Shown here: positions 1 through 32,103 of the stretch, piece by piece | How the letters are laid out: every line of letters begins with the position of its first letter | Position numbering within the stretch: position 1 is the stretch's first letter | UHGV virus genome: UHGV-2104448 | Source of the DNA: a virus | Direction: 5' to 3' (one strand) | Length of the DNA: 34,172 nucleotides | Position numbers and translations under genes: made by a program | Notes under the pieces: generated by a model | What the model was told of the DNA's origin: nothing | The model's input: the letters and a program-made list of their open reading frames with translations, nothing else | Database searches by the model: none

Positions 1-423
1 TTACGTGGGTAGGATCACTCTGTTCGGACCACTGACAAGAGCATACTTATATTCATCATCCAGTTTGATTACATTATAGCCACCATAGAAGGGGCCAAAA
101 AACGAAACCTTCAACGCTGCAGTTTTAGTATCTCCAGTAAAGTATGCTTTACCTTCGCTCTCGCTCCATTTATTTTTCGTTGGATCGTATCCACGGTTAA
201 GTACACGAATCCCTCCGTCGTTCCGTTTTCCATAAGTAGCGCTGACCTGTTCCAGACCACGTTCGAACCGGTTCTCGAGGCGAGCTATTTCATACCATTT
301 TCCGAGGTAGCGGTTGGCGTCAAAATTTGTAATCGGCTGCACACCTTTAGGTGGTGTCGGGGCCTTACATGCTATAAGAGTGAAAGAGAGTGCAATGCCA
401 GTCAACACAGGCCATAACTTCAT
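1..423 (-). CDS. Lipocalin-family outer-membrane lipoprotein (Blc-like)
   Basis: 140-aa ORF with an N-terminal signal peptide and lipobox (LIAC). Lipocalin motifs are present: NFDANRYLGKWYEIARLENRFERG and KVSFFGPFYGGYNVI. Stop codon lies at positions 1-3. Shorter at the C-terminus than E. coli Blc as I recall it. Confidence 0.8.
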   Translation of the reverse strand: MKLWPVLTGIALSFTLIACKAPTPPKGVQPITNFDANRYLGKWYEIARLENRFERGLEQVSATYGKRNDGGIRVLNRGYDPTKNKWSESEGKAYFTGDTKTAALKVSFFGPFYGGYNVIKLDDEYKYALVSGPNRVILPT

Positions 424-615
424 AATAAATCCTGTACTTTTGATAGTTGAAAGTAAGTATGAAAGATAGATGATTACGACCGATCACTTAAAGAACTTTC
501 ATACTATATTAGGAATAGTCCATAACAGAAAAATTGTCAGTGATGACGCCAGAAAGGCAATTTATTCCGTGCACTACACAGTTTATCTGTTAATGAATTA
601 GTCAAGGGGGAGGAT

Positions 616-1575
616 ATGATAAAAAAACCTGTGATTGGAATCAGCGGTTGTTTGGCCGGTTCTGCTGTTCGTTTTGATGGTGGTCACAAAAGAGCTGACT
701 TTTTAATGGACAAATTAGTGGAATGGGTAACATTCAGACCAGTATGTCCGGAAATGGCTATAGGGCTGCCAGTTCCGCGTCCTGCTCTACGTCTTGTGCG
801 CTCGACGCAAGGAAATATACGGATGTGTTTCAGCCACGACCAGAATGAGGATGTGACAGAGAGAATGACAGAGTTTAGTCGTTCTTATATGGACAAATTA
901 AAGGATGTATCGGGGTTTGTGGTTTGTGCTAAATCTCCCAGCTGTGGCATGGAGCGCGTGCGTGTCTATGATGAAAATGGTAATCGAGGTCGTAAAGATG
1001 GAGTGGGACTATTTACGAGCACTTTGATGGAAAAGTTTTCCTGGCTACCGGTTGAAGAGGATGGGCGATTACATGATCCAGTGCTTCGTGAGAATTTTGT
1101 TGAAAGAGTTTTTGCTTTGCATGAACTCAATCACCTTTACAAGGAGAGATTATCAAGAAGAGAGTTATTAGCTTTTCATAGTCGTTATAAGCTTCAGTTG
1201 TTGGCGCATAGTCAGGCAGGCTATAAAGATATGGGACCATTTGTGGCTGCAATACACGAGTGGGCGGACCTTGAATCATACTTTGAGGTGTATCGTGATA
1301 AGCTGATGGCGATTCTCAGAAAACCTGCATCACGTAAAAATCACACGAATGTACTGATGCATATACAGGGGTATTTTAGTAACTACTTAAGTACACGCCA
1401 GCGTAAAGAGTTGAGCGAGGTTATACTTAACTATCGTTCTGGCACATTGCCTCTTCTTGCGCCGTTGACTCTGCTGAAGCATTATCTGGGTGAGTATCCT
1501 AATGATTACTTGCTTACACAGAATTACTTCGATCCCTATCCGGAAGAACTGGCTTTAAGGCTGATGGTGAATTAA
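616..1575 (+). CDS. DUF523 (TudS-like, putative 4Fe-4S) / DUF1722 two-domain protein, YbgA-like
   Basis: 319 aa with a strong RBS (AAGGGGGAGG) upstream. Cysteines at residues 12, 44 and 104 match the spacing of the three cluster-ligating cysteines of the DUF523/TudS family. The C-terminal half resembles DUF1722. Family assignment is from motif recall only. Confidence 0.6.
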   Translation: MIKKPVIGISGCLAGSAVRFDGGHKRADFLMDKLVEWVTFRPVCPEMAIGLPVPRPALRLVRSTQGNIRMCFSHDQNEDVTERMTEFSRSYMDKLKDVSGFVVCAKSPSCGMERVRVYDENGNRGRKDGVGLFTSTLMEKFSWLPVEEDGRLHDPVLRENFVERVFALHELNHLYKERLSRRELLAFHSRYKLQLLAHSQAGYKDMGPFVAAIHEWADLESYFEVYRDKLMAILRKPASRKNHTNVLMHIQGYFSNYLSTRQRKELSEVILNYRSGTLPLLAPLTLLKHYLGEYPNDYLLTQNYFDPYPEELALRLMVN

Positions 1576-2054
1576 CTGTATGCGATATCATCTGAAAGTG
1601 ATGAGTTCCTGCATGCAGGATATTTACAATCGTAAAAACTACACTATGATACCCATAGTGTCAGTTTGTATAAAAATCCTGTTCACGCTGAAGAAAATAT
1701 TGAGATGCAATTTAATGTTGGTAAATATACCAGCCCCAAAATATTTTATTCAATCTGTTTTTATATAAAGATATTTCAAGTGAATATTAAGAGCATATAA
1801 TATTATTATTGCACGCAGCTATTATAATATAACAGATTAGTTTAATGATTTTTTGCGAGTTAAACACATGCTTTTATAGTTGTGATGCAATGAGATTTTC
1901 CTTATTGTTGAACTGGCGAATATTGATTATCCACCTATACTTACCTGGTGTAACCCCAATGATATCAGGTGGATAATATGCCATACATATGTTCTATGGT
2001 GATGCCTCTAATTAGTTGAATCTGATGTATAATACGGGCTTTTGAGGTTATCTC

Positions 2055-2327
2055 ATGGCCAGAGTTAATATTCATTGTCCCCGTTGTCAGTCAGCTCAGG
2101 TTTACCGCCATGGTCAGAACCCTAAAGGCCGTGACAGATTTCGCTGCCGTGACTGCCACCGTGTGTTTCAGCTCACTTATACTTATCAAGCACGTAAGCC
2201 GGGTATGAAAGAGCTGATAACTGAAATGGCCTTTAATGGTGCCGGGGTTCGCGATACCGCCAGGACAATGAAAATTGGTATTAACACCGTCATCCGGACT
2301 TTAAAAAACTCGCGCCAAAGCGAATAA
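2055..2327 (+). CDS. insA: IS1-family InsA (transposition repressor / N-terminal part of InsAB')
   Basis: 90 aa with a CPRC...CRDC zinc finger and an HTH. About 50% similar to classical IS1 InsA by recall, so a divergent IS1 relative. Confidence 0.85.
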   Translation: MARVNIHCPRCQSAQVYRHGQNPKGRDRFRCRDCHRVFQLTYTYQARKPGMKELITEMAFNGAGVRDTARTMKIGINTVIRTLKNSRQSE

Positions 2328-2749
2328 CTTCTTCGCCTGTTGCCCATGCTGATGTGGCGCTTATCTGCGAGCTTGATGAGCAATAGAGCTACGTTGGCAG
2401 TAAAGCCCGGCAACACTGGCTCTGGTACGCGTACAACACCAAAACAGGCGGTGTACTGGCCTACACTTTTGGTCCCCGAACCGATCAAACGTGCCGGGAG
2501 CTACTGGCACTGCTTACACCCTTCAACATCGGCATGCTGACCAGCGATGACTGGGGCAGCTATGGCCGGGAGGTGCCGAAGAATAAGCATCTGACCGGCA
2601 AAATATTCACCCAACGCATTGAGCGTAATAATCTGACGCTACGCACCCGCATTAAGCGGTTGGCTCGTAAAATAATCTGCTTCTCACGCTCAGTTGAGAT
2701 CCACGAAAAAGTGATCGGAGCGTTTATCGAAAAACACATGTTCTACTAA
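2303..2749 (+). pseudogene. insB: IS1-family insB transposase frame interrupted by an in-frame amber codon
   Basis: The -1 frame relative to insA, entered at the A6C motif, reads ...HADVALICELDEQ*SYVGSKARQHWLWYAYN... The TAG at 2384-2386 replaces the conserved Trp of the DEQW motif. The remainder, to the stop at 2747-2749, is InsB-like. Confidence 0.75.
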
Positions 2750-2768
2750 TTGGATGCACTACCATCAC

Positions 2769-3145
2769 TTGCATGTCTTGCTATCTTATCTTCAGAGAAA
2801 ATAGTGCAAAGGTTTTTATTTGGGTGTCTTAATAGTTTAGGAAGTAAAGTTAAGGCTATTATCCACAAGGATATATCTGCAACATGGAGACTTTGTGATA
2901 TATCTTCAAGACTGTGCCTGAGTGAAAGTTTGTTAAAAAGAAAATTAAAACACGAAGGCTTATCATTTGGTAAACTAAATCTTGAAGAGCGAATGGTGAT
3001 GGCGGAAAGCTTATTAAGCTACAATTTATATTCTGTTGGGAAAGTTGCTGAGATATGCGGTTATGAAAATACGTCATATTTTGTAAGTGTTTTCAGAAGA
3101 TATTTTGGTGTTCCTCTCCACAAATATTCATCAAGATTTTTTTAG
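2769..3145 (+). pseudogene. AraC-family regulator, C-terminal HTH domain only (5' part replaced by the IS1 element)
   Basis: The ORF translation carries a typical AraC/XylS HTH (…ERMVMAESLL…VGKVAEICGYENTSYFVSVFRRYFGVPLHKY), similar to the AppY/EnvY group. The reading frame runs into the IS1 right end, and no N-terminal domain was recognised. Confidence 0.7.
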
Positions 3146-3223
3146 AAAAACACATGATGTAACGTGATGCGATTTAATGATTTTGTAATTTTCGTATTTG
3201 ATAATTTTATGATGCTTTCAGCT

Positions 3224-3571: not shown

Positions 3572-3886
3572 ATGACTCAAAACTATGAACTGATTGTGAA
3601 AGGGATCCGCAATTTTGAGAATAAAGTTACGGTAATCTTAACGTTACAGGACAAAGAACGTTTTGCCGGTGAAATTTTTGACCTGGACATCTCGCTGGAC
3701 CGTGTTGAAGGTGCCGCGCTGGAGTTTTGTGAGGCAGTTGCCAGAAGGAGCATCAGACAGGTCTTCCTGGATGTTGCTGCCGGGTTATGTGAAGGGGACG
3801 AGCTGTTGCCAGAAACGCGACCCTGTTCAGAGGCTCGGTATACCATAAAAATTAACAGTTCAGATAACTCGATTACGGGTTGTTAG
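3572..3886 (+). CDS. ydfR: DUF1327-family protein (YdfR-like), inserted between holin and endolysin
   Basis: 104-aa ORF occupying the position of ydfR in the Qin-type lysis cassette. No functional motif recognised. Confidence 0.65.
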   Translation: MTQNYELIVKGIRNFENKVTVILTLQDKERFAGEIFDLDISLDRVEGAALEFCEAVARRSIRQVFLDVAAGLCEGDELLPETRPCSEARYTIKINSSDNSITGC

Positions 3887-3941: not shown

Positions 3942-4969
<1,028 letters not shown>

Positions 4970-22956: not shown

Positions 22957-26358
<3,402 letters not shown>

Positions 26359-26376
26359 ATTTTATAACCCAGAACG

Positions 26377-26402
26377 GGCGTCAGAAATGACGCCTTTTTT
26401 AT
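26377..26402 (+). terminator. Intrinsic terminator after J (GGCGUCA-GAAA-UGACGCC plus U-run)
   Basis: Perfect 7-bp stem with a GAAA loop followed by TTTTTTATT, 19 bp after the J stop. Confidence 0.6.
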
Positions 26403-26424
26403 TGCAGAAAAGCGAGAGGTAATT

Positions 26425-27024
26425 ATGCGTAAACTTTATGCCGCCATTTTGTCCGCAGCCATCTGTCTGGCCGTATCCGGTGCGCCTGCATGGGCGTCTG
26501 AACATCAGTCCACGCTGAGCGCGGGCTATCTTCATGCCTCGACGAACGTTCCCGGCAGCGATGATCTTAACGGGATTAACGTGAAATACCGTTATGAGTT
26601 TACGGACACACTGGGGCTGGTGACGTCATTCAGCTATGCAGGAGACAAGAATCGCCAGCTGACCCGTTACAGCGATACCCGCTGGCATGAAGACTCCGTT
26701 CGTAACCGCTGGTTCAGCGTGATGGCGGGGCCGTCTGTACGCGTGAATGAATGGTTCAGCGCGTATGCGATGGCGGGTGTGGCTTACAGCCGTGTGTCGA
26801 CTTTCTCCGGGGATTATCTCCGCGTAACTGACAACAAGGGGAAAACGCACGATGTGCTGACCGGAAGTGATGACGCTTGCCACAGTAACACCTCTCTGGC
26901 GTGGGGAGCTGGCGTGCAGTTTAACCCGACCGAATCCGTGGCCGTTGATGTCGCTTATGAAGGCTCCGGCAGTGGCAACTGGCGCACTGACGGGTTCATC
27001 GTGGGTGTCGGTTATAAGTTCTGA
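26425..27024 (+). CDS. lom: Lom outer-membrane protein (Ail/Lom/OmpX family)
   Basis: 199 aa with a signal peptide and a beta-barrel ending in the C-terminal Phe (…GFIVGVGYKF). Lambda lom-like. Confidence 0.85.
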   Translation: MRKLYAAILSAAICLAVSGAPAWASEHQSTLSAGYLHASTNVPGSDDLNGINVKYRYEFTDTLGLVTSFSYAGDKNRQLTRYSDTRWHEDSVRNRWFSVMAGPSVRVNEWFSAYAMAGVAYSRVSTFSGDYLRVTDNKGKTHDVLTGSDDACHSNTSLAWGAGVQFNPTESVAVDVAYEGSGSGNWRTDGFIVGVGYKF

Positions 27025-27051
27025 TTAGCCAGGTAACACAGTGTTATGACA

Positions 27052-27077
27052 GCCCGCCGGTTCAGGCGGGCTTTTTT
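27052..27077 (+). terminator. Intrinsic terminator after lom (GCCCGCC stem plus U6)
   Basis: GCCCGCC-GGTTCA-GGCGGGC followed by TTTTTT. Confidence 0.55.
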
Positions 27078-27082
27078 GTGGG

Positions 27083-30000
27083 GTGAATATGGCAGTAAAG
27101 ATTTCAGGTGTACTGAAAGACGGTGCAGGTAAACCGGTACAGAACTGCACAATCCAGCTGAAAGCAAAACGTAACAGCACCACGGTGGTGGTGAACACGC
27201 TGGCCTCAGAAAATCCGGATGAAGCCGGGCGTTACAGCATGGACGTTGAGTACGGTCAGTACAGCGTTATTCTGTTGGTGGAAGGATTCCCGCCGTCACA
27301 TGCCGGGACCATCACCGTGTATGAAGATTCTCAACCCGGTACGCTGAATGATTTTCTCGGTGCCATGACGGAGGATGATGCCCGTCCGGAGGCACTGCGC
27401 CGTTTTGAACTGATGGTGGAAGAGGTGGCGCGTAACGCGTCCGCAGTGGCACAGAACACGGCAGCCGCGAAGAAGTCAGCCAGCGATGCCGGCACATCAG
27501 CCCGTGAGGCGGCAACCCATGCGACTGATGCTGCAGGCTCAGCACGCGCAGCCAGCACGTCAGCCGGACAGGCCGCTTCGTCGGCTCAGTCAGCGTCTTC
27601 CAGCGCAGGAACGGCATCAACAAAGGCCACTGAAGCATCAAAAAGTGCTGCCGCTGCAGAGTCCTCAAAAAGCGCGGCGGCCACCAGTGCCGGTGCGGCG
27701 AAAACGTCAGAAACGAATGCTGCAGTGTCACAAAAATCTGCAGCTACTTCTGCATCCACCGCGACCACGAAAGCGTCAGAAGCTGCCACCTCAGCCCGGG
27801 ATGCGGCGGCCTCAAAAGAGGTAGCGAAATCATCAGAAACGAACGCATCATCAAGTGCCAGTAGTGCAGCTTCCTCGGCAACGGCGGCAGGAAATTCCGC
27901 GAAGGCCGCAAAAACGTCTGAGACGAATGCGGATAACAGCGCACAGGCGGCAGCAGACTCACAAACTGCATCGGCAAACTCCGCGACAGCAGCCAAAAAA
28001 TCAGAAACCAACGCGAAAAATAGCGAGGCAGCAGCAAAGAGCAGCGAAACAAACGCTAAAGCCAGCGAAACTAATGCTAAATCCAGTGAAACAAACGCGG
28101 CGAAATCTGCGGCGGACGCACTTAATTATCGCAACCAGGCCCAGGGTATTGTTGGTACTAACATCGGTTTGGGATCATCACCGCGTGATTGCTCTGACAT
28201 CTCAGGAAATCCATCAGGTTATATTGGCTTTATGCGCATCATGGCTGATGCAACAGGTTTCCCGTCTATTGCATCCGGTGAAAGCAGTCTTACGGGGTTT
28301 ATTAGTCAGGTAGATGGAACTCCAGCGTATACAGGTGTATTTCAGGGATGGACTACTCGCTCGCTTTATACCTATCGCTGGAGTCCGACAACAGGCCCGC
28401 AATGGACACGCCACGCTCGCAAAAATGAAGTGGACCGTCTTGACCAATGGAATAGCGAAACATGGTTATATAACCATGATAAATCCATGCGCCTGGGTTT
28501 AACCGGATCAACATGGGGGTGTTACAGCGACACACAAAAAAAATGGATACCACTTGATGTTTCTCATGGTGGCACTGGCGCAAATAGCCTTGATGACGCC
28601 AAAACTAATTTGCAAATCCCTGAGGGTGGATTAACAAAAGCGATGACCCTTAATGCCCCTGGTGGTGCAGTGGATGGCAAATACTACCCTGTCATAATAG
28701 ACACATCCGCAATGAATGGGAGCGGTGCCATGTTATGTCCTGTTGAAATAAAAACAGCAGGAGGTCCGGCATCAAATCCGCTTAATAGTAACTCATTTTT
28801 TGGGTTCATTCGATGTGGTGGCTGGAGTGACGTTCGCGATGTGGCTTACGGGTCATTTGTTTGCTATGAAAAAAATGAACTCGGGATACTTTGCATTAAA
28901 GCGTCGCAAAGAGATTATGCGCAGCATGTAGCTTTCTACATCCATAAAAGCGCTTTTCCTGTCGTTGTGCAAACTGGCTACAAGGCAAAAGTTAAGGTTC
29001 CAACAGAAGACTACGTAATTGGTGACAACGGGGTTAGATATAAGTTTGGTGTATCAACGTCAACGGAGGATAACGACAAGAACTTTGTTAAAAATGTTCT
29101 TGACTTCACTGGCGGTGAACATGGCTTCTACAGCAACCTTCCGTTCAGACAAGGGGTGTCAGAAAGGATTGCATTAACAAATGGCCTGAGTTTTGACAAA
29201 AATTTTACCGTCACTATTCCTATATTTGTAAACAATGGTCAGATTAAAGCAACACAATCTTTCACCGCGTACGGTACGGACGCTTCAAACAGAACATTTG
29301 TTTCTCAAAGATTACAATCCGAAGGAGGTCCGGTTGTCGATCAAACTGAACTAAGGGCCGCTAACGCTTCTGGTGAAATTGTTGTCAGGGACATAAATAA
29401 TTCAGGGAACAGTAAGTTCTTTAATTTTAACCTTGATGGTACCTTCAGTTCTTATCAGGGATTGGTTGTTCACACAGGGCAAAACTGGAGCACTCAACAT
29501 ACAGAGAATGTAAATAAGTTTAAGCCAATAGCAGGGAGCGCAGGCGGTCCTGACGGAACAATGGTTGTTGGCGGATTCCATGCTCAATTTAGCGGTAATT
29601 ACGTCACACAATTCGCCGGTCGCAACTCCAAATTTTGGGCAAGAAGCTTTGAGGCTGGGGTTGATAAGGGATGGAAACGACTATTAACAGTAGACGATCT
29701 CAATTCATCTACCGATCTTGCTGTCAGGTCATTAACCACATCTAACCCGGTAAAATCTGGCGGAGGGCGGATTGATGTCCTTGGAAGCACGTCAGATTAT
29801 AGCAAAATGGATTGCTTTGTACGTGGGTTTGATAGCACCGGTAATTCTCTCGCGTGGGCGTTGGGTTCATCAGTCGGCGTAAGTAAGATGCTGTCGCTAA
29901 AAAATTTCTTTAGCGGAGCTGAGATACTGTTAAATGGTAATGACGGCGCGGTTCAACTCAAAACAGGTGCTGTTAACGGGGCTAAAGCGCACGCGCTCAC

Positions 30001-30691
30001 TATCAACAAGGATGAGGTTAACTCAACTGTTGATTTAACTCTTACAAAACAAACAGGGACTGGCAATCGTTTTGTTTTACAGAACTTAGGTAATACAGAA
30101 CTATCATTTGCCGCAAAAGTATGGGGATCAAGTGATCGACAAAACGTTTTTGAGGTTGGAACGTCTGCTGCGTATCTGTTTTATGCGCAAAAAACGTCAG
30201 CAGGCCAGTTGTTTGATGTAAATGGCGCTATTAATTGCACAACGCTGAATCAGTCATCAGACCGCGACCTTAAAGACGATATTCTCGTTATCAGCGACGC
30301 GACGAAAGCAATCCGTAAAATGAACGGATACACCTACACGCTCAGGGAAAACGGGATGCCTTATGCTGGCGTTATTGCACAGGAAGTAATGGAGGCGATA
30401 CCAGAAGCTGTAGGATCGTTTACTCATTACGGTGAAGAGTTGCAGGGACCAACGGTTGACGGCAATGAATTACGTGAAGAAACACGTTATCTGAATGTTG
30501 ACTACGCCGCCGTGACGGGGTTACTTGTTCAGGTCGCCCGTGAAACAGATGGTCGCGTTACCGCGCTGGAAGAGGAAAACATAACGCTACGTAAAAATCT
30601 GGCAACAGCAGGCACCCGGATCAGCACTCTGGAAAATCAGGTAAGCGAACTGGTTGCACTTGTCGGGCAGTTAACAGGAAGCGAACATTGA
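27083..30691 (+). CDS. stf: Side tail fibre protein, chimeric: lambda Stf-like N-terminus, divergent distal region, C-terminal intramolecular-chaperone (peptidase S74-like) domain
   Basis: 1202 aa. The N-terminal 130 aa or so (MAVKISGVLKDGAGKPVQNCTIQLKA…) are lambda Stf-like, followed by Ala/Ser-rich SETNA repeats. An HGGTGA fibre motif is present. The last 145 aa or so begin with the S-D-x-x-L-K motif (SSDRDLKDD at about 30254) and end in a coiled coil, typical of self-cleaving intramolecular chaperone domains. Confidence 0.85.
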   Translation: MNMAVKISGVLKDGAGKPVQNCTIQLKAKRNSTTVVVNTLASENPDEAGRYSMDVEYGQYSVILLVEGFPPSHAGTITVYEDSQPGTLNDFLGAMTEDDARPEALRRFELMVEEVARNASAVAQNTAAAKKSASDAGTSAREAATHATDAAGSARAASTSAGQAASSAQSASSSAGTASTKATEASKSAAAAESSKSAAATSAGAAKTSETNAAVSQKSAATSASTATTKASEAATSARDAAASKEVAKSSETNASSSASSAASSATAAGNSAKAAKTSETNADNSAQAAADSQTASANSATAAKKSETNAKNSEAAAKSSETNAKASETNAKSSETNAAKSAADALNYRNQAQGIVGTNIGLGSSPRDCSDISGNPSGYIGFMRIMADATGFPSIASGESSLTGFISQVDGTPAYTGVFQGWTTRSLYTYRWSPTTGPQWTRHARKNEVDRLDQWNSETWLYNHDKSMRLGLTGSTWGCYSDTQKKWIPLDVSHGGTGANSLDDAKTNLQIPEGGLTKAMTLNAPGGAVDGKYYPVIIDTSAMNGSGAMLCPVEIKTAGGPASNPLNSNSFFGFIRCGGWSDVRDVAYGSFVCYEKNELGILCIKASQRDYAQHVAFYIHKSAFPVVVQTGYKAKVKVPTEDYVIGDNGVRYKFGVSTSTEDNDKNFVKNVLDFTGGEHGFYSNLPFRQGVSERIALTNGLSFDKNFTVTIPIFVNNGQIKATQSFTAYGTDASNRTFVSQRLQSEGGPVVDQTELRAANASGEIVVRDINNSGNSKFFNFNLDGTFSSYQGLVVHTGQNWSTQHTENVNKFKPIAGSAGGPDGTMVVGGFHAQFSGNYVTQFAGRNSKFWARSFEAGVDKGWKRLLTVDDLNSSTDLAVRSLTTSNPVKSGGGRIDVLGSTSDYSKMDCFVRGFDSTGNSLAWALGSSVGVSKMLSLKNFFSGAEILLNGNDGAVQLKTGAVNGAKAHALTINKDEVNSTVDLTLTKQTGTGNRFVLQNLGNTELSFAAKVWGSSDRQNVFEVGTSAAYLFYAQKTSAGQLFDVNGAINCTTLNQSSDRDLKDDILVISDATKAIRKMNGYTYTLRENGMPYAGVIAQEVMEAIPEAVGSFTHYGEELQGPTVDGNELREETRYLNVDYAAVTGLLVQVARETDGRVTALEEENITLRKNLATAGTRISTLENQVSELVALVGQLTGSEH

Positions 30692-30865
30692 TATCCTTCA
30701 AGCCCTGAAGGAGGCTGTTCCTGGTACGTTCAGACTGTTGTTGAGCTGGAAATCGCAACGGAGGAAGAAACTTCGTTGCTGGAAGTCTGGAAAAAGTATC
30801 GGGTGTTGCTGAACCGTGTTAATACATCAGTAGTACCGGATATTGAATGGCCAGCACTGCCGTAG
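30692..30865 (+). pseudogene. 3' relic of a tail fibre assembly gene (tfa), no start codon
   Basis: In frame directly after the stf stop: …[44 protein letters not shown]. This is the conserved C-terminal signature of lambda-type Tfa proteins. Confidence 0.6.
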
Positions 30866-30962
30866 GGTAAAACATATAAATTCTATAATTAGATGTATCT
30901 TTCCATTTACGGCAAGGAAGGGGGCTTGGAAGACGTAAAGCATCTCACACCGAGATTATTTT

Positions 30963-31553
30963 TTATATGTCAGGTGTCTGAAGTTTTGCTTTGGCTCTTA
31001 AAATGGTTTGCCGCGAGGTTTTGAATTCCCGGGCAATGGCACTTATACTTACACCTGACTTAATTCGTTCGAATACCACCTGTTTCTGTTCTTCATTTAA
31101 CACAGGTGGTCGACCAAAACGTTTCCCTGCGCCGCGGGCTCTTACTATCCCGGAATGAGTGCGTTCAAGTAAAAGGTCTCGTTCAAATTCAGCGACTGCT
31201 GAAATTACTTGCATCATCATTTTTCCTGTTGGACTGGTCAGGTCAATGCCACCCAATGCTAAGCAATGCACTCTGATACCTGTTTCGGTCAGTTGTTCCA
31301 CTGTTTTCCTGATATCCATTGCATTACAACCAAGGCGATCCAGTTTTGTCACAATCAATTGATCACCACATTTCAGGCGAGCAAGCAACCGGTTAAAACC
31401 AGGACGCTCACTGGTTGCTGCTGAGCCGCTAATGTGTTCTTCGATTATTTGCTGAGGTTTGATTTTAAAACCTGCACTTTCGATTTCCCGGCGTTGATTT
31501 TCGGTGGTCTGATCCAGCGTTGATATCCGACAGTAAGCAAAAATTCGAGACAT
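30963..31553 (-). CDS. pinQ: Serine recombinase, Pin/Gin/Hin invertase family
   Basis: 196 aa with the N-terminal catalytic-serine motif (YCRISTLDQ), a resolvase-type catalytic domain and a C-terminal HTH. Convergent with stf. Confidence 0.85.
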
Positions 31554-31869
31554 AGTGAGACTCTATACGAAATTGGTGTTCATATCATAATGCATCTCAG
31601 AAAATAATTATGATTATTTTTGTGCATATTTGTATGTACACGTTCGAAAATAAACGAATGCGTATGCAACCCCGTAATTTTGGTGAGACCCAAAATCGAT
31701 TTTGTGAAAAATAGCTTTAACTCGGTTTGTTTTTCGAGTTCCGGGCGGACTCAAGGAAGAAGAATAGTGTTGCGTGTTATTTTAACCAGATTTCAAGTTG
31801 TTTGGTCGTGGAAAAGTGGAGCAAAATGTTGTTAAAGTGAAAAAATGATAAAAAAGTAAGTTTATTATA

Positions 31870-32103
31870 TTACATTTTACCATTTAAATTTTGGTTATCT
31901 TTAAGAACTGATATCGCTGTTTGTAATAATTCTTTGTTATCCAGCCATGATTTTTTCTTTATGTTTCCTTCAATGTAATCAAGCAATGTTCTGGTATTGA
32001 TAGGTCTTCCCTGTTTTGCTACTTCCACTACAGCATCCCCTAGGATAATTCTTACTTCAGGAAGCTGCGCAGGGAACCACTTTAGGGTGTCTTTTGATTT
32101 CAT
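31870..32103 (-). CDS. ydfK: Small prophage protein YdfK/YnaE-like
   Basis: 77 aa from the Met with the AAGGAA RBS (MKSKDTLKWFPAQLPEVRIILGDAVVEVAKQGRPINTRTLLDY…). The ORF track allows an upstream start at 32136. Confidence 0.6.
   Translation of the reverse strand: MKSKDTLKWFPAQLPEVRIILGDAVVEVAKQGRPINTRTLLDYIEGNIKKKSWLDNKELLQTAISVLKDNQNLNGKM

Follow-up and report, generated by a model that had tools for sequence, protein, structure and literature searches.

A tfa relic joined to the right end of an IS609-like element behind a self-chaperoning side tail fibre gene in a lambda-like prophage at the Qin site

The segment that follows the side tail fibre gene (stf) at positions 30692-30865 of the window, the whole 34,172-nucleotide stretch of viral DNA analysed here, is very probably a non-functional composite scar in which the right end of an IS609-like insertion sequence is joined to a relic of the tail fibre assembly gene tfa, with a history of insertion followed by deletion. 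In the history that we propose a lambdoid stf would have gained a receptor-binding region carrying its own C-terminal S74 chaperone, which would have made Tfa dispensable, and an IS609-like element would then have transposed, on the opposite strand, into a TTAC/TTAT overlapping the stf stop codon. The terminal TCAA of the element would have created a new TGA stop with only the last Stf residue altered, and a deletion or illegitimate join, probably at a TTCAG, would have linked the tnpB stop-codon region to about codon 147 of tfa, removing the rest of the element together with three quarters of tfa. The joint would have formed once, long ago, and a compact cassette of S74 arm, remnant and relic would have spread among the lambdoid phages and prophages of E. 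coli, where homology of the relic to resident tfa genes would have led to crossovers, mosaic alleles and varied downstream neighbours including the pinQ arm.

The window represents the late half of a lambda-like prophage at the Qin attachment site, with genes running from terminase to J and then through lom, stf, the relic, pinQ, ydfK and ynfT to a split ydfJ. The serine invertase gene pinQ (30963-31553, minus strand; Pfam Resolvase and HTH_7, RefSeq pinQ) is convergent with the relic and marks the conserved Qin right arm, which begins inside the relic. The stf gene stops at a TGA (30689-30691) and the same frame remains open for 57 sense codons (30692-30862) until a TAG at 30863-30865. A first-pass annotation of this DNA had read the frame as 58 codons of Tfa C-terminus immediately after stf. 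The frame is open as described, but it counts 57 sense codons plus the stop and only the last 45 of them (30728-30862) are Tfa-like, so that the relic does not follow stf directly; 12 codons derived from IS609 stand in between.

With its TAG the relic occupies 30728-30865 on the plus strand, 37 nt past the stf stop and on the same strand, in the place held by tfaQ in L002, a prophage at the same chromosomal site, and by tfa in lambda. Its 45 codons are equivalent to residues 147-191 of TfaQ and lambda Tfa. The similarity to Tfa is real and far above chance: the Pfam profile Caudo_TAP (PF02413) is matched with E=8.5e-18 and a score of 65.2 bits where 22.1 is the cut-off, residues 14-57 of the 57-codon frame covering profile positions 87-130 of 131, and of the 45 residues (VQTVV...WPALP) 36 agree with TfaQ residues 147-191 and 34 with lambda Tfa. 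Database comparison thus upheld the assignment to Tfa C-termini. At the DNA level homology to full-length tfaQ begins at 30729. Codons 1-146, the N-terminal three quarters of the gene, are missing along with the start codon and the ribosome-binding site, and direct reading of the frame 30692-30862 found no ATG, GTG or TTG with a ribosome-binding site, as the first-pass annotation had said of the lack of a start in phase. RefSeq carries a PGAP entry at 30740-30865 for a 'tail fiber assembly protein, incomplete, missing N-terminus'. Because 45 of 191 codons are kept, no in-phase start is present and PGAP itself labels the feature incomplete, we class the relic as a pseudogene and not as a member gene. 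It resembles lambda Tfa and Qin TfaQ in its 45 homologous C-terminal codons, its place directly 3' of stf and its Qin-type flank to pinQ, but without codons 1-146, start and ribosome-binding site it cannot encode a chaperone.

The first 12 codons of the frame (30692-30727) are not derived from tfa and come from the IS609-like right-end remnant. The in-frame position of the relic relative to stf, to which significance had been attached, is for this reason a coincidence, with odds of 1/3 for the frame multiplied by about 0.56 for 12 stop-free codons. In a MAFFT alignment these 12 residues fell opposite Tfa residues ~99-115 (SPEG…W), which we judged an alignment artefact given the IS match. An AAGGAGG at 30708-30714 also lies inside the remnant, and no start codon comes after it.

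The remnant itself, of IS200/IS605 type, extends from 30688 to about 30733 on the minus strand, inverted relative to stf, and was recognised by blastn to the 3' ends of tnpB/insQ genes. Read on the minus strand it consists of the tnpB stop codon (the complement of 30730-30732), 39 nt and then a terminal TCAA, which as TTGA on the plus strand supplies the third base of the final stf codon (His) and the TGA stop. Similarity to IS609 continues to 30738, and the remnant measures about 46-51 bp. Sensitive blastn searches gave an identity of 43/52 (83%) to tnpB/insQ 3' ends, with E=7e-6 among plasmids and E=1e-4 among phages in databases of 7.3 and 2.3 Gb respectively. Matches of the 37-nt stretch were of two sorts, either the same joint in other phages or the 3' ends of tnpB (insQ), and every match outside the cassette sits at the 3' end of a tnpB gene. 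These include more than 50 plasmids from E. coli, Salmonella, Providencia and E. albertii (about 83% identity), the chromosomal insQ adjoining ydcO, and a Morganella phage (E=1e-4) in which the gene concerned, labelled 'virulence protein', is a 402-aa TnpB. The products of the matched element are an RNA-guided TnpB (NF040570, E=1.9e-116) and a TnpA of IS200 type.

The boundary between stf and the remnant coincides with the terminus of the element. In four independent insertions (L061, L062, L063 and L065) the flanking DNA is unrelated until TTGAC (TTGACATCC) is reached, and similarity of the window to the insertion sequence starts at the same terminal base (TTGATATCC at 30688); on the minus strand the remnant ends in …GGATATCAA where the IS609 copies end in …GGATGTCAA. 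IS608-like elements insert immediately 3' of TTAC. Among the IS copies compared the left end abuts TTAC or TTAT and the right end closes with TCAA, and the published cleavage sites of IS609 are TTAT on the left and TCAA on the right (PMC6906374).

Under insertion at such a target, the intact gene should have finished in …GGAAGCGAAC-A/G-GTAA and its opposite strand should have read TTAC. For the sequence so predicted, CAGTTAACAGGAAGCGAACAG, viral contigs gave no exact match, and a one-base variant of it is present in L080, a related fibre gene without the remnant that ends GGAAGCGAAGAGTAA (…GSEE and stop) and reads TTAC followed by TCTTCGCTTCC on the opposite strand. A second related fibre gene without the remnant, L064, ends GGAAGCAATGAATAA (…GSNE and stop), with TTAT followed by TCATTGCTTCC on the opposite strand. 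Past the right end of the element the window reads TCAA followed by TGTTCGCTTCC, a flank that matches that of L080 at 10 of 11 nt and in register; L080 and L064 are to be taken as related alleles and not as the true ancestor of the window stf. In both of these uninterrupted alleles the TTAC/TTAT target overlaps the native stop codon, and a terminator follows the fibre gene with no tfa. The intact terminus and the target together show that the stop codon of an S74-type stf was the site at which an IS609-like element inserted.

We considered whether the likeness of 30688-30738 to the IS609 right end could be due to chance or convergence, for example on a small hairpin motif, without any transposition. 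The shortness of the match (52 nt at 83%) and the loss from the remnant of the hairpin of the live element speak for such a reading, yet it is very improbable in view of the E-values obtained in databases of gigabase size, the restriction of all non-cassette matches to tnpB 3' ends, the start of homology at the terminal base of four independent IS copies, and the finding of the predicted TTAC/TTAT at the homologous place in uninterrupted alleles with a flank agreeing at all but one of 11 nt.

The derivation from IS609 thus concerns its right end with TCAA, the exact-terminus boundary and the TTAC/TTAT target of uninterrupted alleles; in contrast to IS609 the window keeps the extreme right end only. 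No IS-like sequence (left end, tnpA or tnpB) was found beyond 30738 in the window alignments, and the 9-bp subterminal hairpin of live IS609 is decayed and not kept in register. Because nothing IS-like lies past 30738, the hairpin is lost and no genome was found with the full element here, we regard the element as a remnant only, a fossil that is neither a mobile element nor a working omega-RNA. It carries no annotation in the RefSeq and phage records examined. Compared with Rfam, the IS609 ends gave only weak, sub-threshold matches to HgcC, sot0042 and RAGATH-18. The sole Rfam match in the window, IS009 (RF02111), scored 88.5 bits, below the gathering threshold of 117, and is uninformative, as its consensus is tfa 3' coding sequence; no known RNA family in Rfam accounts for this stretch.

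At its other side the remnant passes into tfa through TTCAG (30729-30733, plus strand), a putative microhomology that occurs both at the IS609 end (ACGTTCAGG) and within tfa (CACTTCAGG), and a short shared sequence of the kind that the first-pass annotation had suggested looking for at the junctions. This TTCAG was probably the microhomology at the deletion joint, and the break point in tfa can be placed only to within 30729-30745. No full-length tfa allele with CAGACTGTTGTTGAG was found, nor one containing CAGACTGTTGTTGAGCTGGA, all 44 matches to which were the same joint. A chimeric query for a complete IS609 between this stf end and tfa matched 0 of 5426 E. coli genomes, so that the order of insertion and then deletion is a proposed one.

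The stf gene of the window (27083-30691, plus strand) starts at a GTG at 27083, or at an ATG at 27089 according to PGAP, and encodes 1202 aa named in RefSeq 'prophage tail fiber N-terminal domain and S74 family endopeptidase-containing protein'. The product begins with a lambda-like N-terminus (PF08400, aa 3-136, E=1.8e-71 in Pfam), continues with an imported receptor-binding region and ends in an S74 intramolecular chaperone (Pfam Peptidase_S74, PF13884, aa 1059-1110, E=2.7e-12). The chaperone part (30257-30688, plus strand) starts at the SDRDLK motif, and the conserved Ser…Lys autoproteolysis motif is present, SSDRDLK of Stf aligning with SSDRRIK of PDB 6f45 and SSDRRLK of phage FritzHoffmann. 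S74 domains in general are cleaved off after folding. T5 pb1, the K1F endosialidase and the lateral fibres of BASEL siphoviruses have the S74 domain and Ser…Lys motif as in the window Stf; unlike in those fibres, the S74 domain here is grafted on a lambda-type Stf N-terminus and has the fossil of a displaced chaperone attached.

An intramolecular chaperone and a separate Tfa are alternative solutions (PMC11990801). No tfa is annotated next to stf in phage mEp460 and no full-length tfa was found within the cassette-carrying loci, and we infer a history in which the fibre's own S74 chaperone made Tfa dispensable. The sequencing study of mEp460 reports lytic and lysogenic growth for 26 focus phages, with the membership of mEp460 among them unconfirmed (PMC9836094).

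Between 28196 and 30578 the gene resembles lateral fibre genes of other phages, with 83% identity for the virulent Nonagvirus FritzHoffmann and about 75% for a T5-like phage, and the C-terminus of Stf shows 70% protein identity to the FritzHoffmann lateral fibre. With the non-lambdoid fibre relatives, FritzHoffmann and slur09, homology is lost at about 30578 and the DNA downstream is unrelated. L002 has the classical arrangement stf-tfaQ-pinQ and aligns with the window over 25542-27930 at 85.6% and then over 30729-32000, beyond pinQ, at 98.3%, so that window 27931-30728 stands where L002 has the old 3' part of stf and tfa codons 1-146. Alignment with lambda gave the same two end points. The junction alignment proposed in the first-pass annotation, run against lambda and the Qin-site prophage L002, thus resolved end points of 27930 and 30729, and the idea that a self-chaperoning module displaced the 3' end of stf and most of tfa stands in outline, given the replaced block relative to L002 and the presence of S74.

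On the left-hand side the mosaic joints lie in an Ala/Ser-rich repeat zone (27467-28077, plus strand; repeat family D1) with six copies of a 23-nt motif, and homology to the stf genes of lambda and L002 stops at 27930 on the final base of one copy. With other relatives homology breaks at 28062, 28231, 28431 or 28609 and resumes at 29474, 29723 or 29972, and the S74 3' arm (from 29474 or 29723 on) is common to many fibre variants with differing central domains. From these recurrent break and resume points it follows that the portion exchanged is the central receptor-binding part, while the N-terminal arm on one side and the chaperone-plus-relic arm on the other are held in common.

The block comprising the stf end, the remnant and the start of the relic (30560-30745), at an identity of at least 95%, was found in 803 of 5426 complete E. 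coli genomes and at 1380 places, and the remnant accompanies this stf end in 806 of 822 records. Phages mEp460 and Ayreon have the joint as well, and so do 51 IMG/VR viral contigs; scans of GTDB representative genomes with the joint and with the stf end gave no matches. Divergence has brought the adjoining stf arms to 81-99% identity, yet no copy departs from the common 5' edge of the relic; the scar is thus an inherited part of the cassette. As the joint is common to hundreds of genomes and to at least seven contexts it is not local to this prophage, but an old scar, probably of single origin, carried within the cassette.

Phage mEp460 (NC_019716) is 97-98% identical to the window over 26341-30851, with the same S74 Stf, stop codon, remnant and relic 5' edge, but past about 30851 it has another tfa 3' end (…WLEEPNTM and stop) followed by dinI and int in place of pinQ. 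Ayreon shares the S74 Stf chaperone, stop codon, remnant and relic 5' edge and has a different central fibre domain. These differences show that the cassette moves between genomes.

The distribution bears on a simpler account in which the S74 module arrived by one illegitimate recombination event, the 37 nt being native downstream sequence of the donor and the 5' edge of the relic being the exchange junction of this very prophage. Such a swap would fit a replaced block that relative to L002 is one contiguous segment (27931-30728) and the failure to find an IS-bearing intermediate. We consider it quite improbable and already disfavoured, because the 37 nt match the IS609 right end with a boundary exactly at the IS terminus, homology to FritzHoffmann and slur09 ends some way before the stop with unrelated DNA beyond, uninterrupted related alleles have another downstream sequence with a terminator, and the joint recurs in hundreds of genomes and at least seven contexts. 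The earlier view of the relic as the scar of the recombination that swapped in the module therefore needs to be divided: tfa was displaced, but the joint would have arisen by IS insertion followed by deletion or an illegitimate join, and its edge, present in 803 of 5426 genomes, does not mark the right-hand exchange junction of this prophage, for which the crossover lies at about 30821-30851.

Returning to the insertion-deletion scar, its relic shows extensive mosaicism. Within the first 130 nt after the stop 29 haplotypes were distinguished among 53 copies, and the four-gamete test on the same 53 copies and 130 nt gave a minimum of 6 recombination events; the relic peptide has 35 variants. 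Past about 30851 the sequence falls into at least seven clearly different classes (14 at a 75% identity cut-off), including the Qin/pinQ, lambda (WPAVPVME and stop), mEp460, WPTNPVRE and WPVAPIG types. Alignments, the copy table and the four-gamete test define an allele-switch zone at 30821-30851 on the plus strand: the window relic follows the mEp460 allele up to 30820, carries a third allele (AAT ACA TCA GTA GTA) over 30821-30838, and matches the tfaQ-pinQ arm of L002 without difference from about 30840 onward. As the allele switches occur at 30821-30840, the latest right-hand crossovers, joining the cassette to pinQ-side DNA, lie in the last third of the relic (about 30821-30851). Mosaic alleles and at least seven downstream classes together argue that the relic alleles were shaped by later homologous crossovers with resident tfa genes inside the relic, to which it is about 85-94% identical. 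From the mosaic pattern the relic would have acted as a passive, not necessarily selected, right-hand homology patch for cassette exchange.

No evidence of expression of the relic was found, and the best-supported reading from the sequence data is that of a neutral fossil. A functional relic, either as a C-terminal extension of Stf by TGA read-through or as a mini-Tfa that aids folding or host binding, might be proposed from a frame that is open and in phase with stf, from the retention of 56-66 open codons in 53 of 55 copies examined, and from the fact that no block of Tfa is more conserved than the one retained. We consider this highly improbable. A start codon or ribosome-binding site in phase is lacking; nearly all copies end stf with TGA but L004 has TAA there, which argues against selected read-through of the TGA; the copy in L017 is frameshifted; and any extension would sit on the S74 chaperone, which, as is well established, is itself removed after folding. 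Repeated gene conversion by intact tfa genes (Rm at least 6) would account for both the open frame and its conservation.

The nearby invertase gene raises a different origin for the relic, as the leftover of a Pin-invertible segment that held the alternative tfa of a pinQ-served inversion system. An intact pinQ 98 bp downstream of the relic is what suggests it, and a pin gene adjoining stf/tfa is likewise a feature of the Mu G/gin, P1 C/cin and e14 P/pin systems. In contrast to those systems the window shows neither inverted crossover sites nor a second stf'/tfa' set in inverse orientation, and the relic lies direct, in the orientation of stf. A gix/pix-like core (AAACCNNGGTTT, one mismatch) is absent within 20 kb upstream of the stf-pinQ region, and the matches to this core in the whole window (6417, 9673 and 33445) are no more than expected by chance. 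The repeat search found no inverted or direct repeats bracketing the joint or region, the Ala/Ser family being the only relevant one. In full-length relatives one stf-tfaQ pair lies convergent with pinQ, and the window too has one stf/tfa set only. Taken against the proximity of pinQ, these observations leave the inversion origin exceedingly improbable. A scan of 30400-31800 for terminators found none.

An unlikely but more far-reaching extension of the IS609 reading is that the intact element, through TnpB and an omega-RNA guided by the sequence next to its right end, the stf 3' antisense (TGTTCGCTTCCTGTTAAC), cut empty stf alleles by TTAC and so drove tfa to be lost and the S74 cassette to spread. 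Were this the case, the breaks would have led to recombinational repair among co-resident lambdoid prophages, and the remnant and relic would be the fossil of that process with the relic kept as a right-hand homology arm.

A truncated tfa pseudogene beside a self-chaperoning fibre is a known kind of arrangement, and this instance is already annotated; the IS609 origin of the joint is a small new detail, and no description of the relic or of the IS609 joint was found in the literature. The locus offers a natural example of a trans-acting chaperone gene, tfa, that would have become dispensable and decayed once the fibre carried S74, and of a fibre-gene stop codon that in about 15% of complete E. 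coli genomes would have been donated by the tip of a long-dead IS609. Its recurrent crossover patch may be useful for designing or tracing chimeric side tail fibres in host-range engineering. The practical value lies mostly in annotation and in phage mosaicism, with no sign of a new kind of biological system.

Thirteen additional viral-contig loci end exactly at the stf stop codon and were uninformative. In phage Tritos a tfa relic without any IS remnant starts within about 10 nt of the start of the window relic, a coincidence that hints at a preferred break region and counts against the proposed history; its left partner is a different S74 fibre plus a 98-aa membrane ORF.

The homology of the side tail fibre gene (stf) ends repeatedly at fixed sites between positions 28062 and 29972 of the window, with recurrent left end points at 28062, 28231, 28431 and 28609 and right end points at 29474, 29723 and 29972. 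As these end points recur across approximately 50 related loci, the alignments suggest that the central receptor-binding domain is exchanged at fixed module boundaries. In one locus (IMGVR_UViG_2908572912_000001) the entire stf gene is absent and the lom coding sequence (…AACGGGATTAACGTGAAATATC) is joined straight onto the IS609-like remnant (ATATCCTTCAAGCC…), the fusion point at approximately 3737-3754 on the oriented strand being an ATATC microhomology, and both the IS remnant and the relic of the tail fibre assembly gene (tfa) are still present behind lom.

Fragments of tfa are also found in other arrangements. Phage Tritos (OV696610, 1823-3440) carries a tfa relic adjoining pinR in a layout that differs from that of the window, with a second short fibre gene of the S74 chaperone type followed by a terminator-like hairpin, then an ORF for a predicted membrane protein of 98 aa and finally the relic, and the IS609 remnant is absent from this interval. 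The Tritos relic starts at the equivalent of window position ~30740 (TGAGCTG…), which places its break point at nearly the same position as that of the window. A prophage at the potB site (NZ_CP085060, 5049-6228) contains two tfa 3' fragments, one behind an S74 stf and the IS remnant and the other approximately 1 kb further downstream, adjoining potB and separated from the first by a gene for a SAM-methyltransferase and part of dinI. The candidate sRNA family IS009 of Rfam (RF02111) matches the window at 30631-30831 with 88.5 bits, under its gathering score of 117. Because the IS009 consensus reads as tfa 3' coding sequence, what this "RNA family" describes appears to be a piece of prophage DNA that either codes for protein or is a pseudogene.

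Convergent with the tfa relic, pinQ (30963-31553, minus strand) is an intact gene for a 196-aa serine invertase. Neither gix/pix-like crossover sites nor an invertible segment were detectable near stf or the tfa relic, which leaves the PinQ invertase without an evident substrate nearby. RefSeq annotation shows disruptions in the early, left part of the prophage (1-3157), where the tnpC of an IS66 is truncated, a copy of IS1 contains an internal stop and an HTH gene is frameshifted. Although its morphogenesis block looks complete, the prophage is therefore probably defective. Twelve IMG/VR provirus records (L068-L079) stop exactly at the stf stop codon, and automated boundary calls have apparently trimmed the pin arm from them, together with the tfa relic and IS remnant.

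A complete IS609-like element with divergent tnpA and tnpB lies within a toxin-antitoxin pair on the IncI2 plasmid NZ_CP128966 (2141-4471), where it separates the annotated antidote gene (2141-2425) from the RelE/ParE toxin gene (4238-4471).
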